This document shows, in pieces, positions 2,362 to 13,770 of a DNA stretch of 64,000 nt. Position 1 is the stretch's first letter. Every line of letters starts with the position of its first letter. Position numbers and translations under genes: made by a program. Below the pieces are notes generated by a model. That model saw only the letters and a list, made by a program, of their open reading frames with translations, searched no databases and had not been told where the DNA came from. The DNA is from Patellaria atrata CBS 101060 (lineage: Eukaryota): assembly GCA_010093705.1 (NCBI GenBank), contig MU006090.1:1577817-1641816 (forward strand). The letters are read 5' to 3'.

Positions 2362-2834
2362 CTGATATTCAAGCGATTGTAGTCTCAATAGGGTGCTATG
2401 TTTACGGCTACTAGTACCCCGCCAACTTTTGGGGCTTTCCGCTGCGTTACCGCCCTAACTCTAGGCGCGATTAGGCGTAAGGTAGGCAACTATCGGGCGA
2501 CTAACGGGCGACTACCTAGCGTTTACCCAGCAATGATCTAAGAACCCTTAACTTTGATAAGTTAACACTCTTATATTAATATATTAGGCTTATTTATTAT
2601 TAGGTTGGATATAAATTCTTTTTAATTTAAAAAAAGGTTAATAAAGAGAACTATTAACTAGTGGTTAGCGCCAATAATTAGTGATCATGTGATTATATAT
2701 AATCCTTAAAACTTAAATCAACCTCCTGTAAACACATTGTAAATATAACTCTACACCAACAACAATAACAGTTACGAGAAAGATAAGGAAGACCCAAAAT
2801 ACGAGAAGTAGCTTATCTCATCTAGTCTAAAAAG

Positions 2835-4898
2835 ATGGTAATGGTTATAATACCTCTTAGCCGGAATGGGTCGCCAGTGGCCCCACAAATCAAAACTCAA
2901 GCGGTAAGATATTAGCCCTTCAAAGTAGTCCTTATTACTCGAGTCTTAGCTAAGAAAATATATTATCAATTTTAGATTAGTAAGATTGTTTGCCATAGAC
3001 GTAATAAGGACGATGTAAGTGATATTTAACTAAGAATTAACGTATCTTAATATCTTGATACTACATTATATGCTACGCTAACATGTTCGCTTAATAGATA
3101 GAGGAGTTTTTAATCAAATGGAGTGGTTTCGATAAAGATATATATATCCCCTTCTCATGGCATACGATTGATGAACTGTCAACGTGTCTAGCGTTGGTAC
3201 AGGACTACCTTAATAAACGTCCACGGTAGGTTGATATCCCCACCCTTAACGCTTGATATTGGGCTATAACATCAATATAACACCCCTCACTACATAACTG
3301 ATTATATTATCGATCCCTAGCCCTTTAAAGAAACGCAAAGCGAGTGAATTCGATGGATCAACCCACCTCAACGCTTTCCAGCGTAGCGTTAAACTGAAGA
3401 GCCGATCACCCTCCGTGCTTAGCTCAACATCAGAATCATTCACGTCCAAATTTAATATCGAACACAAGCACGTCAAAATCTATAATGGGGTCCTCAAGCA
3501 AAATAATGGGTTTCTCGAGGTTGAAAGGGTCAGTTAAGATCCAATCATGTTTTTACCCTAAGACCTGCTTACTAATCCGATATAGAGCACGAATCCGAAT
3601 GTAGCACAACTAGAGGCCCGACGAATCCCGACCGAATCCATGATCAATGAGGCTCGTCAGACGTTGACCGTGAGAGCAGCTAACAAGATCCGCGTCGAGA
3701 TCCAGAAACAGCTCGCGCGGATCTCCGGACCACCCGTTCGACTTGCCAACACCATAGACGAATCCTCGCCTCCGCTGAGGTTCGAATGGATCGACGAAAA
3801 CATCTTGGGTGAGGGGGTGCAGAAAGCGGATGCAGACACGATGCTCGGGTGCCAGAGCTGTCGGCCTGACATGGGGCAGAACATCGGGTGCGAATACACG
3901 AAGAAGTGCGACTGTTTGGAATTCGCGGCCGTCAACCAACGCCGGCTCACGGAGGCGCAGAGGTACAAATTGGACCACGGAGACGGCGACAGCAGGGATA
4001 TGCCGAAGCGGTTCCCGTACCACAATTCCGGAGCCTCTGCTGGCTGTCTCGTCAGCTTCTACCTCGAATCGCGGGCGCCGATCTATGAGTGCAACGCTAA
4101 GTGTAGGTGTGGCATGGGATGCAAGAATAGGAACGTGCAGTTCGGGCGGCAGGTTGAGTTGGAGATTTTTAAGACCGCGGACCGTGGGTGGGGTATGTTT
4201 TTGCTCTTTTTCGTTCTCTCTATTTCTTCAAGCACACTCCTCACCTGTCCCTTACCCCTGAGTACCCCTGAGTACACTCGAAAGTCCCCAGACGCCCTAT
4301 TGTACAACCCCATCACATCGAATCCACCTCTATCCTATACCAAACCATCACTAACCTTCTCCTAGGCCTCCGCACCAAATCCCCCCTCAAACGCGGCCAA
4401 TTCATCGACACCTACCGCGGCGAAATCATAACCGACGCCGAAGCCACCCGTCGCGAAACCACCATCCCCACCAGCACGCCCTCCAAAGCCGCCCTCGCGC
4501 ACAAAGACTCCTACCTCTACACGCTCGACAAATTCACCTCCCCCCTCCTCCCCCTGAGCGCGTGCTACATAATCGACGGCTCGCACACGGGTGGCCCCAC
4601 GCGCTTCATAAACCACAGCTGCGCGCCCAACTGTCGCCAATATACCGTCTCTTATAATAAGTACGATCAGCGGGTTTATGAGATTGCGTTTTTTGCATAT
4701 AGGGATATCGAGGCGGGCGAGGAGCTGACGTTTGATTATTTGGATAAGGATGAGGTGGAGGAAGGGGAGGAGGATGGGGAGAGGGAGAAGGATCAGGGGA
4801 AGGGGAAGGAGGGGAGGGAAAAAGAAAGGGAGAGGGAAGAGGGCATGTCGGAGTGTAGGTGTGGGGCCAGTAGGTGTCGGAAGTGGTTGTGGATGTGA
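2835..4898 (+). CDS. clr4: Histone H3K9 methyltransferase (Clr4/DIM-5/KMT1) with N-terminal chromodomain, pre-SET, SET and post-SET
   Basis: Predicted in-frame exons 2835-2903, 2976-3014, 3098-3225, 3321-3528, 3586-4192, 4366-4898. Pre-SET GCQSC...CDC...IYECNAKCRCGMGCKNR. SET motifs RGWGL, RFINHSC, ELTFDY. Post-SET CRCGASRCRKWLW. IAFFA has Phe at the Phe/Tyr switch position, as in trimethylases. SET part certain; 5' exons are predicted. Confidence 0.9.
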
Positions 4899-5407: not shown

Positions 5408-7895
5408 CTAAAACAAATTCCCCATGATCCTCGCCAACTCATCATCCTGCCCTAGCACACCCGCACCAATCTCCCCGTTCTCCCCCACCCCACTCGGGCC
5501 AACCTGATACTGATTGCCCAAGAGACCAGAAAACGCGCCTACAGCCTCAAACATGCTGGTCAACTCGTTAGCCATGCCATTCGGGCTCGCCTGATACTGA
5601 CCCGGCACAGGCGTCCCACCACCGGCGCCATTGCCGAATATAGCGGCCTCGTCGACCTGGTGGCCCGCGAGACCCGCCATTGCGACCGCAGCCGAGGAAT
5701 GGGGGTCCGAGGGATCGTGATGGATCGACTGTTGTTGCTGTCCAGGCTGGTTGCGGTAGTTCAGACCGAGCTTCTGGGCCGCTTCTTTGAGAACCTTGAC
5801 TGTTTTCCAGAGTTTGTTGCTGACGAAGGAGGAGCTGGATAGGCCCCGAACGAGGTCAAGCGCCATGTAGAACTCGTTCTTACAGTCGTCGCTGAATTGG
5901 GCGGGCGCGTGGGAGACGGCGAGGAAGAGAACTGCGATGGCGGAGAGGATGAAGTAGTTGAAGAGGACTTGTTGTGTGCGATAGAGGTCCGTCGTTGTGT
6001 TTGTGTGGGTGAGCACGCGGATAGTGTCTTTGGCGACGTCGACGACCGTTTGCGCTTGCGCCATGTTTTCCATGATACTAGTTGCCGTGTGGAGGACGGG
6101 GCGGTAGATCAGGATGCGCATCTGGTTGGCCCGAAGGTAGAGAACGATGCGGAGGCGGTGGATTCCTCGTGGTGCAGGATCTGGTTCTTGACCTGTATTC
6201 GGATGGGTGTAGCGGAGTGAGTCGGGGATTGTGCGATGCCATTGTATGACCTGATAATCAAGATACCCTATTTCTTCTTTGCTCACTTGTTGACCGGGTG
6301 CGTTTTCAACGTTTGCGATCGCTTTCCAGACCTTTGAGCCGATGTTGCTATATGTTACCATTGCGGATAGATATGGCACAACCGTCTCATCCTAAAGAAA
6401 GTCAGTGGTGAAACTAATACAAGCATAACTCTTAAGATATTCATTCGTCAGAAAATACTTACTGGTCGAGGTAGTAATGGATCAATATCAGCATCTTGAA
6501 GGGCGAAAGGCATGCCTGTGCCGAAACTCCACCGTCTATCTAATACATAGATGGACCAGAATAGATTGATAGCAGAGGTCCGTTCGGCTTCGTCTGTGAA
6601 TCCAGTATTATACGTTTCACGTCGGTGAAGGCCCAGCTCCATACACAATCGAGCGGCTATTCCGACAACTCTCCAAGCACGAGTCTCGTCGTCCCGGTGA
6701 AAATGATACATTGCCTGGACTTTCTTTAGTATGTAAATGGGGGCTGAACTAGAGTAACTAACACTTAGACTAAGCATTCGAATACCCTTATCATCAACTG
6801 GTGCCAAAAGCTGTCTCTCAACAGCAATGTGTGCGTTTTCGAACAACCTTCTACCAAGTTCGCTTTTACCACGACCTTCAAGAATGAGGGCAATTGATAT
6901 GATTAGTTTCATTATGCTTGTCTGTGCATCATTGATACCATCAGATCCAGGTAGCGACCCCTGCATCAGACCAGAACGGTTTGCGGCGTCCATGAAGGTG
7001 TACAGCAAGGTTGCATGACGGATCATTTTCTCAATATCTACCACGTTATACATGATCCCCATCTCTTCTTGCCATACTCTCAAGAGTCGTAAAGCCTCGT
7101 CCCTTGGAATTGACCATATAGGATCCTTTGTAGGATGAAGCTGTCTGAAAGCATTGGAAGAAGGAGGTGGGCTTGGTGCGGGAGACTGGTCGATACCGAT
7201 TGCGTCGTCAACAGAATCTATCTCACCACTCGTTATTCCCATTGTTTGCAAGCTAGATTTTGCGACTCCAAGGTTAAAAACGGAACTTGTGGGCCCTTGA
7301 TATTTAGGATGCTTCGCAGATTGGCTAGACCTATGCTGCGTGGGCGAGTTTGGAGTTCCAGACATTTGCGAATTGGACACAGAGCGTGAGAACGAAGGAA
7401 GTTGATTGTATAGGCCAGGATCCACCGGAGTGATACGCGATTCGACTTGAGTCCTGAGCTGATTGAGATTACTGAAGAGGGAGTCGACCTGCGCCTGAAG
7501 ATGTGCGATATGTTCACTCATGGCCTTGTATTCCCTGCGATGCGTGAGTTTATAAGCACGAAATTGGCGCATTAACGCATTAATTACTTACTCCGAGTCC
7601 TTGAACGAGTTGCAGCAATTCGGCGCATATACACACTCGAGGGAGAGATTTCCACATCTTTGACACGGAGTCTGTCCATTGCACTTGATTTTGCGCCTCT
7701 TGCACTCATTGCTGTACGCGACAATGTTAGCATCGCGTCTTGACGCATAGATATATCGTGCTCGAGTATATCGGCGTACCATGCGATTGAAATATATCGA
7801 TTCCTCTTCGCTCTCTGTTGGGGCTGACCGTCTTCGTTTTTGCGCTTGGTACCGGCTGGGTCGTTGATAGGACTTTGAGAGTTCAAAGTTTCCAT
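5408..7895 (-). CDS. Zn(II)2Cys6 transcription factor with fungal-specific TF middle homology region
   Basis: Spliced ISIACNECKRRKIKCNGQTPCQRCGNLSLECVY binuclear cluster. Middle region AWRVVGIAARLCMELGLHRR...FWSIYVLDRRWSFGTGMP. ORFs 6448-7572 and 5408-6379 joined by GT-AG introns. Confidence 0.93.
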
Positions 7896-8073
7896 TCTCG
7901 CGAAACGGGCGCAGGCACCGTGACGCGGCGATTGAAGAGCGGAATTGTCGAAGTGGACCAAAGTGAATGACAGCGTATAGACGAGAAGTGATCGATGGTG
8001 GGTGTGCGGTTCCCTTCCGCTGAGCTTACACTAGAACTACGGGGTACGGTACGGCAAGACGTGTTAAGCCGAA

Positions 8074-8091
8074 CCCTAACCCTAACCCTAA
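8074..8091 (+). repeat. Interstitial telomere-like repeat (CCCTAA)3
   Basis: Three perfect CCCTAA units about 180 bp upstream of the TF start codon. Confidence 0.75.
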
Positions 8092-8664
8092 GAACCAGAG
8101 CACTTGATCTGCTGTAGATTAGAGATCTTGTACCACTACTGCACAAGATGTACTATATGCTCTTCCTTATAAGTATCTATCATTGTACAATACAAGCATG
8201 AAGATTAGAGCTTCATTCCCTGGCCAAGGGGTCGTTGTCAGTATTTTCAGTCTCTGCAACTTCCGCCCAGACATAACACCATACTATCAAACGGGACTCC
8301 TCTCCAACTTTTCAACTGATATCCACAACTAAGCCAGAAAAATTTTTAACTATCAGAAGACTGTTTCGAATCATGGTAACGAAGTTCGGTAACGATTATT
8401 AGTAACCATCTTAATACTAAGAAAATCCTATCAGAATTACTGTCAAGTAGCGCCTCTAGCTTTGTCTAGCTTCAGCAATCATGACCAAACCGAGTAGTCA
8501 TGGGAGATGAATTCGCTCTATATCCCGGTAGTCGGTCGATTTTTCCCCCATCATTATCTACAAGAAGTTCCATATTACATTCGACAGACATACTATGTCA
8601 GCAACGCCCTAAATTGGTCATCTTACGTGATCTCAGATAATGCACTTTATAGAACCTCAGGTCC

Positions 8665-10629
8665 TCACATCACAGCTGCCTCGAGCACTCGTCTTCCTCT
8701 CTGAATCACCGAACTCGCAAAGCGCACACACAATCGTTTGATATCAAAGATCCCGAGTCCTTGTTGTCGGGCATTGTATACCGCCAACAGCGCAAGGGTG
8801 AACGCAAGAATTTCAGCGCTCTTTCGCAGCTTTTGCTTTCTGATACCCTTCTTGGTATATTTGATGTCCCAATCATTCCACGTAGGGAACATATTCTTCC
8901 AGATCCACATATAAGAGCTATACCTATACAAGAGATCAGTCCTACGTCGTTTCCGGCTCTGTTGATTGTTCTACTTACGGATAGACAGTTCCGTTCCACC
9001 CATTAGTCGAATACCAATTATTACATCCGCCCCTCATCATTACCATATCCTTAACTTTCGTCTGAATATCCTTCGTATATGCTACTTCTGCTTCCTTCCT
9101 AACCTCTACCGTTTCCACATCGCCTTTCAAGATTGGCTCGATGAACTGGAGCGCGTGTTGGACTCCGCTTTCAACGTAGAGGACGACAGAGGTGTGTCCA
9201 GTGGCCGTATTGGGTCCAAACAGCATGAAGAAATTCGGGAATCCGTCCATTGCGGTTCCTAGATATGCTTGAGCTCCTCCGCGCTCCTCCATCGTTTCGA
9301 GAATGTCTTTTCCACCTCTACCGATTATCTTCAAGGGATGTGCCCACTTGCTAGTTCCAAATCCGTTTGCTAGCACGATGATGTCTGCGGGGAATTGCTT
9401 CTGTCCCGCGGACTTTTCAGAATTTTTACCCGGACCGAGAGTGACGCTGTGCTCCTGAACGCTCTCGAGACGTCGAGTTGTGAGCTCGATCTTAGGATCA
9501 TTGAGATTAGGGAACCACTCCGCGTCGAAGATCCGCCTCTTGCAGCCGATTGCATAATCTGGAATCAACATCTCATGGTACTTTTCAGGAACCGTTCTCT
9601 TTAGGTAGCGAATAAGCTTGCCTTCGATTTTGGCTCTAGCTTTTTCATGAGACTCTCCCTTTCCCATCAGATCGAATGCAGCTTCGACTCCGAGATATAC
9701 CAGAAACCTAGTTACCAACATAAGACCGGGTATCGTCTTGAAAAGCGTGTTGCTCCACTTCTCCCAAGCATCGTTTCCACCAAGTCCTGGACTCCTGGGG
9801 ACCACCCATGGCGGAGAACGCATAAGCTGAGTTACTGATTTAGCGTTATACGGCGCTTTTATCAACCTAGGGACAAGCTGAGCAGCACTGCAGCCTGTAC
9901 CAATGACCACTACGTCCTTGTCCTGGAAATCCACGCTGCGGTCCCATCTTGCCGAGTGAAAGATTTCTCCCTTGAAGTTCTCGCGTCCAGGGACATTCTC
10001 AGGCCACGCATTCGGCTCCACAAGCCCTCCAACACCACTGATAACGACCTTAGCTCTTACTTTTTCCGTAAACGAGTAAACCCTGTGGTCCCCTTCCTTT
10101 TCAACCAGATCCTGTCGCTCTTTTGTTGTAAGATCTCCAGCACCCTCAACGAGATGCTTGAGCGTGACTTCCCACTCCTTTTCTTCTTCTAACCACCGAC
10201 ACTCCGTCACATCTGTGTTCAACTGTATCTTATCGACAATATTATATTTTTCGCACACGTCTTGCAGGTATCTGACATATTCGCCACCAGGGGGTTGGAA
10301 GCAGGACCAGTTCTTGTTAGGGCAGAACGAAAAGGAGTAGAGAATCGCGGGTCTAAAAGCATATTAGCATTAATCTTCGAAGAGCTCCATTTAGATCAAA
10401 AAGCAGCGTACATATCGCAAGCAACGCCCGGGTACCGATTGATCCACCACGTGCCCCCAATCCCTGATTGCCTATCGAAAATCCTGAACTGATCGAATCC
10501 GAGCTTTTCTTTCAACCTGCAGCCCATAGCGATGCCCGAGGCTCCAGCCCCAACGATGAGGATAGGATAATACGTGTAGCCATTGGGATCGTATGCGTTT
10601 ACCCGTTTGATGGTCTCGCAATGCGGCAT
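8665..10629 (-). CDS. Baeyer-Villiger / flavin-binding monooxygenase
   Basis: Rossmann motifs IVGAGASG and VIGTGCSA; GGTWWINRYPGVACD; BVMO fingerprint FKGEIFHSARWD; ANGF; FPNFFMLFGPN. Introns near 10352-10411 and 8926-8975. Confidence 0.93.
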
Positions 10630-11424
10630 GGTGATCGCTCTGCAGCTATCCGATATCTGGACGATAGTGGAAATGGGAGATGACGAAGCTGGTATGGATT
10701 CAAATATTCTGCAAGTGCAGCGAAAGGAATGTAGGTAGAGACAGATACCGTATGCGAATCTCAAGCACGGATTCGCGAAACGTGAACACCCCGCGCAGAC
10801 ACACGAGAAATTCAACAGAAAACTTCACAACTGAAGGACAGGAAGCAGCTCCGAAACAGTCAAAGTAACGAAGTAGCAAACGGGAACACAACGCATGATC
10901 AAAATTCAGCACAGGACGGAGCTCAATACCTCATCCCTCGGCACCCCGAGAGGACAAGAAAACGTATCCAATCGATGTTCCAAATCAGGCCCAGCACCCG
11001 AGGCAGCCGCTTTCTATCGAATTAAAATCATAAAGCGCCACATCCCCACATTATGCCGTCCTAGATGGAGATCCCGAGGTCCTTTTAATCCCTGCCGACG
11101 AGCCACTCACGTGCGGCGAGGAACCTAAGCCACCGCTATCCATAAGGTACCGTAAGGTAACTGCAGCATCTTGTCGCCCCGAACAGCACATAAGGTAGCG
11201 CTCCTTTCATGTTATTCATCATCTGATCTCTCTTTGGCTACGGACGTAATTAAACATTCTTTATCGTATCGAATACCCGATGAAGCAAAACATGCAGCTA
11301 CGGGCTGCAACAGGAATGACAGGATTCCGTAAGCCGCGTGCAAAAAAAAAACAAGCTTTCTTCCCAAAGCGGGTGGTTGACAGGTGGCGCTAGTACGTTC
11401 GCGTCCAACAAACGCACACTTCCA

Positions 11425-13770
11425 GAAACTAGAAAGTGAACTTCCACAAAATCTCATATCGCACACGAATCTTCGAAATTTTCGAAGAAGATTCTAGATA
11501 ACTATATTAAAATCTCCCCGTGTGTATGGTTAAGCAAATGACCAAAAAAAAAAGAAAAATCTTGAGTTTTTATCTAAAAGACGTCGGGTAACGCGACTTT
11601 GTTCGCGCTTCCGCTCCTTCCTAGAACTAAGGCCAGATGAAAACTGCTTTCCACCAACCGGTCCAAAATTTTCACATCGCACAGGGACGGGAGTCCTCGA
11701 CATCTTTTCAGAACAAGTAGTTATGATAATCTAACCTATGCCAAGATTTTGCATATGGCCCGTACCTTACGTTCACGCGACTTCCCGTCATTTCGTTCAC
11801 GTCCAATACCTGATACCAAAAACTGCACTTCCACTACCTCCAAAAATTTCATATCGCACATGAACCTTCGAGATTTTTAAGGAGATTCTAAATAACTGTA
11901 TCAATCTCTCTCTTCCCTTGTTATTAAGGAGATGACCAAAAAAAAAACTCATGCGTTTAAGAACTTGTAGTAGTATGTCTAAGGTAGTTTCGATATCCAA
12001 TTTATGCCAAGATTACAGGTATGGCTCGTGCGTTAAGCTCACGTGACTTCCACCACTTCCCTTTTGTACAATTTGAGAAAACCTGAACTTTCCACCACCT
12101 ATCCAAAAAAGCTCGTATCGTACGGGAATCCAAGATTCTCGAAGGAGATTTCTGATAACAGTATTAATTTCGCCCTTTACGTATAGTTAACTAAATGACT
12201 AGAAAATCACGCGTTTTAAGGTACCTATTACCTTATACATGCCTCCTATCTTACCCTCGTTCGACCTAAACCAGCTCTTCTTGAAACTGTAGTAGATAAC
12301 TGTTACAACGGGAGTCTATACTTATCGAGACAGAACAGGATAAGTCTAGAAACGCGCCTGGCTTCTCACTTAACGTGGTCAACCACTAGGGTAGGTTAGG
12401 CAAAGTGATAGGATACGTATAACAAAGGCACTTCAAGTTGTCGGTACAACTTGCTGACTCCTCGACTTCAGGTAATGCTCACAATGAGACAAGACGTACT
12501 GTATGGAAACAGCGTGACAAGTGAAGTCAAGTTCAAAACCGTAACGTCCAAATCTATGGGTAAGATTGATGGTAAGAATAACTACGAAGAATCTAAATAC
12601 ATGAGGGAAAGACCGTCCTTAAATATTCCTATCCTCCATAGTCAATTTAGTGTGCCTACACTCTGGTCGTTCTGGTCGTTTGGTCGTTTGGTCGTTCTCT
12701 ACGACCAAAACGTCCACACGTCCAAACGTCCAAGTCACATGATCCCCTTTGGTCGTTCTGGTCGTTTGGTCGTTTGGTCGTTTCTCACGACCAAAACGTC
12801 CGCACGTCCAAACGTCCAAGTCACGTGACTCACTGTTACTCGTTTCACCCGCAGTTCTCCCGAGTGGTGTTCCTTCTTTCCCCTCACTCGTTGTCTGCAT
12901 GTTCTTACAACTTGTGGCCGTAACAATAACTTCACTTTTATTATCTCATCAAAATATCTTATCGCGAACCAATCCTCGACATTTTTCTCCAAGATTCTAA
13001 ATCACAATATCAATCCTCCTCTCACCCACTATGAAGCAAAAGTCCCAGATAAAATTCACGCGTTTAAGAATACCTTTTATACTTATATACGGAGTACCTA
13101 TTACCTTACCATCCAATCTTCGCCAAGATCTCACGCTCTTCCTTTATCACCCTCGTTCAGCTAATATCTTCAACCTAGCCCCAAAACTAAACTTCACTAT
13201 CTCATCGAAATTTCACATCGCACATCAATCCTCGAGATTTTCAAAGGAGATTCCAAATATTAGCATTAATTCCCTCTTTACTTATCGTTAAGCAAATAAC
13301 AAAAAAAAAACTCTCGTTTAAGTAAGAACACGCATGCGGAGATCCAACGCCTTCCCATCTCCCCCGCGTCCACCAGACACCTTTAACCTAACCCCAAAAC
13401 TGAACTTCATTATCCCATAGAAATTTCACATCGCACACCGATCTCTGAGATTTTTCGAAGAGATTCTAAATAATGGTATCAATCTTCCCCTCACCTACCA
13501 TCAACCAAACGACCAAAAAAAAAAAAATCACGCGTTAAAGAACATCTTACCATCCGATCTTCCCCGATCTCCTACGCCTTCCCATCTCAACTTCGTCCAC
13601 CTGATATCTCTAACCTAACCCTAAAATTGAACTTCACCACTACCTCTCTAAAATTTCATATAGCACATCAATGCTCGTGATTTTTGAAGGGAATTTCAGA
13701 AAATAGTGTCGAGGCCCCTATTTATGTGCGGCAAAGGAAATGACCCCAAAAAAATTCGCGCGTTTCGTAG
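11425..13770. repeat. Diverged tandem array, ~8 units of ~200-260 bp, interrupted by a solo LTR
   Basis: Recurring ordered blocks: AAACTGAACTTC..., AAATTTCAYATCGCAC, ATCYTCGAGATTTT..AAG.AGATTC, GACCAAAAAAAA, TCACGCGTTTAAG. Units start near 11425, 11640, 11817, 12077, 12283/12930, 13182, 13395, 13622. Confidence 0.85.
12301..12925. mobile_element. Solo LTR (copy B, 625 bp), same family as 1847-2361, opposite orientation
   Basis: TGTTAC...GTAACA termini. Perfect 5-bp TSD ATAAC (12296-12300, 12926-12930). First 70 bp identical to the reverse complement of copy A; roughly 93-94% identical by eye over ~300 bp. Confidence 0.92.

Follow-up and report, generated by a model that had tools for sequence, protein, structure and literature searches.

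Whether the histone H3 lysine 9 (H3K9) methyltransferase of filamentous fungi keeps a chromodomain ahead of its catalytic core, and what such a domain would do there, is the question raised by a gene at positions 2835-4898 of a 64,000-nucleotide stretch of Patellaria atrata CBS 101060 (contig MU006090.1, 1,577,817 to 1,641,816 of the forward strand; this whole stretch is the window below). Judged from its sequence, and with its activity assigned by orthology, this is the one H3K9 methyltransferase gene of the Dothideomycete fungus, an orthologue of Kmt1, Dim-5 and Clr4. The available parts of three papers answer the first half of the question in the negative: the chromo domain is described as absent from this enzyme in filamentous ascomycetes (PMC3945186), as not recognisable, in a text that asks how Z. 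tritici heterochromatin is maintained without it (PMC9720130), and as lost, by inference, in the lineage ancestral to Saccharomycotina and Pezizomycotina (PMC9963178). We find from sequence that three small 5' exons of the P. atrata gene encode an N-terminal chromodomain with an incomplete methyl-lysine cage. Modelling suggests that this domain is docked on the enzyme's own catalytic core, an ex-reader retained in a structural or regulatory role, and we give this mechanism a probability of roughly 0.6.

The 5' exons and the chromo fold

The translation carries nine pre-SET and three post-SET cysteines, with Pfam matches to Pre-SET in exon 5 (E 5.5e-16) and to SET in exon 6 (E 1.4e-22), and the locus is the only one in the genome that matches the public P. 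atrata protein P0001 (516 amino acids, aa) along both the pre-SET and SET parts, other SET matches covering the SET part only at 37-44%. When spliced, six exons give a single open frame of 527 aa, from an ATG at 2835 to a stop at 4896-4898. An earlier note on this DNA had proposed that small upstream exons hide a chromodomain, joined at 2903/2976, 3014/3098, 3225/3321 and 3528/3586; all four junctions exist, with GT..AG ends and in frame with the SET gene. Scored on a profile of 29 orthologue N-termini from which the P. atrata gene was excluded, this model was the best of the 44 open spliced models possible in 2601-3360 (82.0 bits), while 40 random 760-base stretches given the same treatment reached a top score of 5.0 bits and in nine cases offered no open model. 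In-frame insertions that begin with Val and end with Gln occur at the sites of introns 1 and 2 in P0124 and of intron 2 only in P0141 and P0033; we read them as introns translated through, which would make the positions of introns 1 and 2 common to relatives. Transcript-level support comes only from the L. maculans orthologue (P0406), in which the whole domain is present and whose introns were mapped by rapid amplification of cDNA ends (RACE), according to the available part of PMC3945186. We are close to certain that the exons are real.

All exons lie on the + strand. Exon 1 (2835-2903, 23 aa) supplies the start codon, a hydrophobic V-V-I-P-like motif common with orthologues (seen in 38 of 66) and, at the first cage position, Gln22 (2898-2900). 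Exon 2 (2976-3014, 13 aa) encodes chromodomain strand 1, and exon 3 (3098-3225) strands 2-3 and the helix, including Trp44 (3119-3121), Phe47 (3128-3130), His58 (3161-3163), Leu67 (3188-3190) and Gln71 (3200-3202). Exon 4 (3321-3528) follows with a basic KKRK motif, a possible nuclear localisation signal, a Ser-rich linker and a Y-N-G hairpin (Tyr133-Asn134, 3481-3486); exon 5 (3586-4192) holds the pre-pre-SET helix (Ala179, Ile183), Leu212, the pre-SET with its nine cysteines and the start of SET; and exon 6 (4366-4898) holds the SET domain, a charged insert, the post-SET cysteines and the stop. Between them lie intron 1 (2904-2975, phase 0, GTAAGA..TAG), intron 2 (3015-3097, phase 0, GTAAGT..TAG), intron 3 (3226-3320, phase 2), intron 4 (3529-3585, phase 0, donor GTCAGT) and intron 5 (4193-4365, phase 1). 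A CTRAY branch site stands 13-22 nt ahead of the AG in introns 2-5 (CTAAC in intron 2), and intron 1 has CTAAG instead. The charged Glu/Lys/Arg/Gly insert between SET and post-SET is coded by a purine-rich stretch (window 4740-4845); it exceeds that of most orthologues in length, and assemblies break there.

Exon 3 alone matches Pfam Chromo (PF00385) at E 0.0019, its 18.5 bits falling short of the 25.1-bit cut-off; among orthologues Zopfia (31.7) and Neophaeotheca (29.6) lie above the cut-off and others below it (LmDIM5 of L. maculans, 14.6). Searched against the Protein Data Bank (PDB), the exon 3 sequence finds six matches, all of them chromodomains, at weak E values of 0.021-1.2. A 30-row profile of the N-terminus retrieves CDY1 at E 7.9e-6 (28.8 bits) and CDYL at 8.8e-6, together with cpSRP43, LHP1, Rhino, Chp1, Swi6 and HP1; 53 of the 57 PDB sequences at E<=1 are chromo-type, judged from their names, and 29 of the 30 profile members match Pfam Chromo at E<=1 (best 1.4e-7). 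On the orthologue profile the spliced P. atrata domain scores 76.4 bits. An AlphaFold2 (AF2) model of Zopfia residues 1-81 has strands at 22-31, 34-41 and 52-56 and a helix at 61-80, with a predicted local distance difference test score (pLDDT) of 83. Its nearest folds are Rhino (Z 8.0, root-mean-square deviation (rmsd) 2.1, 60 aligned), Oxpecker (7.8), the Chp2 chromoshadow domain (7.7) and the SUV39H1 chromodomain (3mts; Z 7.2, rmsd 2.1, 57 aligned), tied within 1; the top Foldseek and VIA matches are likewise chromo folds, and the structural neighbours in the ESM Atlas are Chromo clusters, with a best feature score of 0.79 that serves as a lead only. Profile and orthologue fold thus bear out the proposal of a hidden chromodomain, and there is hardly any doubt that the N-terminus has a chromo fold. 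Chromoshadow domains form homodimers that bind PxVxL peptides. The idea that the V-V-I-P strand fills the peptide groove found no support, its pLDDT being 47-51 in both AF2 models.

To place the domain among relatives, we assembled 262 proteins with a Kmt1 core, the P. atrata spliced model included. At least 150 residues precede the core in 122 of these, and 117 of the 122 match the chromodomain profile, the five misses including P0001; short N-termini characterise the other 140, nine of which match and 131 do not. We read the short proteins as putative truncated gene calls, and mis-calling of the chromodomain exons looks common in database Kmt1 proteins. Several small proteins in the databases are made up of nothing but the chromodomain exon. 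Carriers named to genus belong to Pleosporales, Mycosphaerellales, Dothideales, Myriangiales, Botryosphaeriales and Trypetheliales, with Chrysothrix from the Arthoniomycetes; at the level of sequence, all sampled parts of the Dothideomycetes and one Arthoniomycete retain the domain. The profile counts supersede an earlier regular-expression count of 66/121, in which several columns were forced. Pfam Chromo is already flagged by databases on five members of the set (P0009, P0013, P0115, P0285 and P0320). Searching 1.84 billion representatives with the profile yielded 224 matches, 150 of them listed; ten that were looked up comprised four named Dothideomycete SET proteins, one labelled SUV39H with no organism and five with no name. 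Three word-based database searches were seeded with Dothideomycete sequences, and absence outside Dothideomyceta is not implied by them; in one supplement, reading by eye revealed no such motif in the entries for Neurospora, Pyricularia, Botrytis and A. fumigatus.

An incomplete aromatic cage

The cage register was taken from an alignment to CDYL (2dnt), in which the first aromatic stands two residues ahead of a conserved Val/Ile. In P. atrata the three positions hold Gln22, Trp44 and Phe47, just as the earlier note had read them, with Gln in place of the first aromatic; the three aromatics of an HP1- or Clr4-type reader are thus not all present. No orthologue has a complete cage (0/104). The first position is aromatic in none of 105, the second is Trp in 118 of 120 (Trp41 in Zopfia numbering) and His in two Zymoseptoria, and the third is aromatic in P. 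atrata only (Phe; 1/120), whose two-thirds cage is the best preserved in the set. Asp or Glu occupies position 1 in 49/105 and position 3 in 45/120, and both positions vary freely, with at least 11 residue types each. A species-specific loss of the first aromatic was rejected, the loss being common to the whole sampled lineage. Nor is the aromatic credibly restored by an alternative first exon, which the earlier note had held open: six of 89 upstream GT sites fit, and none combines a consensus donor with a start codon outside the repeat.

In chromodomain readers, a Glu after the second Trp and an Asn-Leu before the helix have a role in peptide binding. Neither is kept in the Kmt1 set, where the first is His instead in 123/124 and the Asn is Glu or Asp instead in 123/125. 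Away from the cage, by contrast with its freely varying positions, several residues are near-invariant (Zopfia numbering: Gln68 125/125, Ser53 124/124, His55 123/124, Tyr70 122/125, Leu64 116/125), in counts that are partly circular because 29 of the scored proteins built the profile. Zymoseptoria (P0305, P0306), the only genus in the set with the cage Trp also replaced, has Ser/His/Thr at the three cage positions and retains Gln68, Ser53, Trp54 and His55. The SUV39H1 chromodomain without its first aromatic does not bind H3K9 peptide, and the same is cited for CDYL, in the available part of PMC3532415. Reading of methylated H3K9 (H3K9me) is unlikely because none of the 104 orthologues has a complete aromatic cage, and we consider it highly probable that the domain is not a canonical H3K9me2/3 reader. 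From known chromodomain biochemistry, the enzyme would then run no Clr4-style read-write loop, and H3K9me reading would be left to HP1-type proteins. An HP1-like gene is present in the P. atrata genome (G000:C11, L011:759-1400, - strand), with Tyr, Trp and Tyr at the cage positions as read from unspliced frames; its cage residues lie in separate exons, and its C-terminal part may be a chromoshadow domain.

Predicted docking on the catalytic core and competing functions

If the domain does not read H3K9me, what keeps its surface constant? In the full-length AF2 model of the Zopfia orthologue (predicted template-modelling score 0.81) the domain has pLDDT 92-97 and the linker 95-144 falls below 50, and rigid superposition on Clr4 brings domain residue 66 to the site of Clr4 residue 195, a hint of docking. 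Complex prediction of Zopfia 11-90 against 145-528 scored 0.76 (runs 0.79, 0.76 and 0.45, with a contact agreement between them of at least 0% and a partner pLDDT of 65 or more), and the best of three controls scored 0.02; the mark for this score is reached by 51/78 solved complexes and 2/108 mismatched pairs, and among eukaryotes by 39/65 and 2/126. The lowest-error contacts run from Gln68, Leu64 and Val67 to Ile202, Ala198 and Leu231, and from residues 51-53 to Tyr152-Asn153, and the equivalents are all kept in P. atrata (Gln71, Leu67, Val70; Ile183, Ala179, Leu212, Tyr133, Asn134). Gln68 and Leu64 had been picked by conservation ahead of the complex run. Their core-side partners are conserved as well (Leu231 126/126, Asn153 123/126, Ala198 116/126, Ile202 112/126); cage positions 20 and 44 lie outside the listed interface and Trp41 inside it. 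We judge it probable that the domain docks on the catalytic core, a conclusion that the model supports and falls short of demonstrating.

In the mechanism that we favour, the domain would fold back across the disordered linker, as in the Zopfia model, so that a helix face of Leu64, Gln68 and Leu/Ile71 (Leu67, Gln71 and Leu74 in P. atrata) would pack on Ala198/Ile202 of the pre-pre-SET helix and on Leu231, and the third strand would meet the lineage-conserved Y-N-G hairpin. Docked in this way, it would stabilise or tune the catalytic core as a fixed part of the enzyme, and it may offer a surface to nucleosome, ubiquitin or a CUL4 adaptor. We advance more tentatively, as somewhat less probable than an even chance, the fuller proposal that the Dothideomycete reader half became a fixed subdomain, which a new hairpin specific to the lineage clamps onto the pre-SET and which, with no H3K9me reading, sets the activity of the enzyme or links it to ubiquitinated nucleosomes; the enzyme would then be an evolutionary intermediate between Clr4, a reader, and DIM-5, from which the domain is lost.

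Several points weigh against docking of a cage-less domain. The domain-side interface is more conserved than its neighbours (0.56 vs 0.39, P 0.003), but the set includes buried residues, and on the core side the difference is not significant (0.53 vs 0.46, P 0.14). Both chains come from a single protein, of which they are the halves, and such pairs tend to pass; contacts common to the three runs can be as few as 0%, and one run scored 0.45. With two of the three cage aromatics present in P. atrata and Trp41 retained in 118/120, there is room for residual binding. To these come the partial circularity of the invariance counts and the 131 of 140 short-N-terminus proteins with no profile match. 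All structural work was on the Zopfia orthologue, the structure of the P. atrata domain resting on homology, and no transcript shows the junctions in P. atrata itself; two runs lacked splice joints and are probably DNA, uninformative either way.

The residual aromatics invite the idea of an altered reader, in which the Trp/Phe half-cage would bind an H3-tail lysine weakly or, in relatives, a Trp-plus-acid pocket would accept a lower methylation state. Acid-plus-aromatic pockets in MBT and Tudor domains do favour lower methylation states, and the near-constant Trp, the acids at positions 1 and 3 and the Phe kept in P. atrata would suit such a pocket. We nonetheless hold this to be unlikely: positions 1 and 3 vary freely, down to the Ser/His/Thr of Zymoseptoria, the peptide-binding Glu and Asn are replaced almost throughout, Trp41 falls within the predicted interface, and SUV39H1 no longer binds once its first aromatic is lost (PMC3532415, as above).

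A binder of nucleic acid or nucleosomes, whose basic helix end and KKRK motif would contact RNA or DNA in the manner of Suv39h1, Chp1 and Clr4, has a precedent in the Suv39h1 chromodomain, which binds RNA through basic C-terminal helix residues independently of the cage (available part of PMC5538823). A basic motif follows within 30 aa of the domain in 59/66 orthologues, and in P. atrata seven of the ten post-helix residues are Lys or Arg. The domain core itself carries a net charge of -1 in P. atrata (median -2, range -7 to +2, n=66), its invariant residues are Gln, Leu, Ser and His, none of them basic, and the KRK motif may equally be explained as a nuclear localisation signal, so that we consider this function improbable as the principal one, although it could act alongside docking. 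The earlier note had suggested weak H3K9me binding or nucleic-acid binding; given the lineage-wide loss, a Phe found only here and a core that is not basic, neither is supported as the leading explanation.

We think it rather improbable that the domain is a free protein-binding module for a CUL4 adaptor of the Raf1/DIM-9 type or for ubiquitin, and not for its own core. The available part of one preprint reports that Clr4 needs its chromodomain and hinge for Raf1 and its chromodomain for H3K14ub nucleosomes, that the chromodomain cross-links to ubiquitin and to the autoregulatory loop, and that its deletion raises automethylation (bioRxiv 2025.08.28.672867); in the Kmt1 set, the conserved face is the very face predicted to be buried against the core. 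Lysine reading, nucleic-acid binding and adaptor or ubiquitin binding need not exclude docking, which we continue to prefer.

Origin, gene annotation and known systems

The domain could have been inherited from a Clr4-like ancestor, a descent argued from position and parsimony only, or captured from a chromodomain-bearing LTR (long terminal repeat) retrotransposon. Capture would fit the 36 Chromo matches in the P. atrata genome, one adjoined by an integrase, and the absence of the Clr4 and SUV39H1 chromodomains from the 57 PDB matches of the profile at E<=1, so that sequence does not establish the domain's orthology. On the 29-row profile, however, the ten best resident copies reach no more than 8.9-10.9 bits (CDY1 has 28.8 on the 30-row profile), and nine of the ten keep an intact Tyr/Trp/Tyr cage; the domain occupies the position of the Clr4 domain and is no closer to a resident retrotransposon than to cellular chromodomains. 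The available parts of two papers also report an N-terminal chromodomain in Arthrobotrys oligospora AOL_s00076g661 (PMC9692433, which notes it in this one Arthrobotrys protein) and call the chromodomain ancestral in fungi (PMC9963178). Capture is therefore very unlikely in our estimate, and recent capture from resident retrotransposons finds no support in those profile scores. The resident copies (L001-L010) are Ty3/gypsy-type elements that carry an integrase and a chromodomain (by Pfam on L003), and six of the ten have a stop within the match, as mutation like that of repeat-induced point mutation (RIP) would give.

The public protein P0001 is identical to exon 5 of the gene (100%) and agrees with the spliced model from exon 4 onward, intron 4 included, but lacks exons 1-3, taking its first 68 aa from 1839-2042; the remark in the earlier note that annotation easily misses such exons was apt. 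Those 68 aa match at 15 other places on 11 contigs, ten of them with stops, and have no counterpart in any orthologue. They fall in a dispersed, LTR-like repeat (1839-2361, strand not assigned) that lies upstream of and outside the gene model; its 318-bp core (2044-2361) ends in TGTAACA 470 bp upstream of the Kmt1 start and has 61 other DNA matches in the genome, about 44 of them spanning the core, with the part 1845-2043 present in fewer copies. We rejected 1839-2042 as a part of the gene, this being repeat sequence, and the 5' end of the public model is probably wrong. That exons 1-3 go unused in P. atrata and that 1839-2042 is correctly joined to 3321 is scarcely credible: although P0001 is the deposited protein and no RNA data from P. 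atrata were found, its start is a repeat with many stop-bearing copies and no orthologue counterpart, and the skipped exons score 82 bits at intron positions common with relatives. A second copy of the repeat, 93% identical, lies at window ~12301-12619 (- strand; G000:C2:1590117-1590435), and some copies of the 318-bp core lie 1-2.5 kb from chromodomain matches (C2:2309380, C6:1495463). A repeat at the promoter of a heterochromatin enzyme gene could mean feedback on the gene. From motif matches in translated open reading frames, we take the neighbouring genes to be a mitochondrial carrier-like gene (833-1498, +), a flavin monooxygenase-like gene (8975-10824, -) and, with its end ~500 bp away from the stop of Kmt1, a Zn2Cys6 transcription factor-like gene (5408-8150, -).

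Our literature search, with most subscription journals outside its coverage, found no description of a chromodomain on a Dothideomycete Kmt1. The available parts of PMC9676040, PMC10246852, PMC6510446, bioRxiv 2021.12.15.472773 and bioRxiv 2022.09.21.508279 mention none on Kmt1, and the last of these, a 2022 preprint, set aside unnamed Z. tritici chromodomain proteins that lack cage residues. In the supplement of PMC9963178, as far as available, Z. tritici Kmt1 is listed with SET-region domains only (4/4 rows), with an N-terminus that by eye is the same as P0306; the same paper offers a precedent in Mucorales for chromodomains hidden in unannotated 5' exons. The domain is present, minus its cage, across a whole class and in proteins that the papers denying it discuss, and history would be revised: reading would have been lost before the domain, and the domain lost later and repeatedly. 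A fixed, clamped subdomain, if real, would be an intermediate overlooked in the Kmt1 of well-studied crop pathogens. Besides a corrected public gene model for P. atrata, named residues are now available to probe whether Suv39 chromodomains act independently of the cage, something that work on Clr4 has begun to hint at only recently.

How does this arrangement compare with known systems? The order of domains, chromodomain followed by pre-SET, SET and post-SET, is that of S. pombe Clr4 and human SUV39H1. Clr4, DIM-5 and SUV39H2 are the closest solved structures of the full-length orthologue model (ranks 1-10), whose catalytic part superposes on Clr4 (9isz) with Z 31.6, rmsd 2.1 and 275 aligned; at the N-terminus the likeness to the Clr4 chromodomain (1g6z) is weak (Z 4.1), against Z 7.2 for SUV39H1 (3mts). 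Unlike Clr4 and SUV39H1, the Dothideomycete domain has an incomplete cage, His for Glu, Glu for Asn, an invariant helix Gln, an extra Y-N-G hairpin and a predicted docked position, and none of the 50 structures listed for the full-length fold search has a docked chromodomain. Neurospora DIM-5 has a similar catalytic core (1peg, Z 29.1) and likewise no working read-write cage, but the N-terminal domain is wholly absent from DIM-5, as it is from the short Kmt1 proteins that Pyricularia and Botrytis have, judged by eye from the PMC9963178 supplement. Two orthologues carry the same domain, although published accounts say that they have no chromodomain. L. maculans LmDIM5/KMT1 (CBX92341, P0406) scores 99.8 bits on the profile and E 0.031 on Pfam Chromo; the available texts give it a length of 516 aa, with six introns mapped by RACE (PMC3945186), and report that its loss removes H3K9me3 (bioRxiv 2021.12.15.472773). 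Z. tritici Kmt1 (107709, P0306) scores 52.7 bits, with no Pfam Chromo match at E<=1 and all three cage aromatics gone. A chromo fold without a full cage is also found in CDYL, where the first aromatic is missing, in cpSRP43 and in chromoshadow domains, all among the top sequence or fold matches of the Kmt1 domain; these differ from it in belonging to other proteins with other partners.

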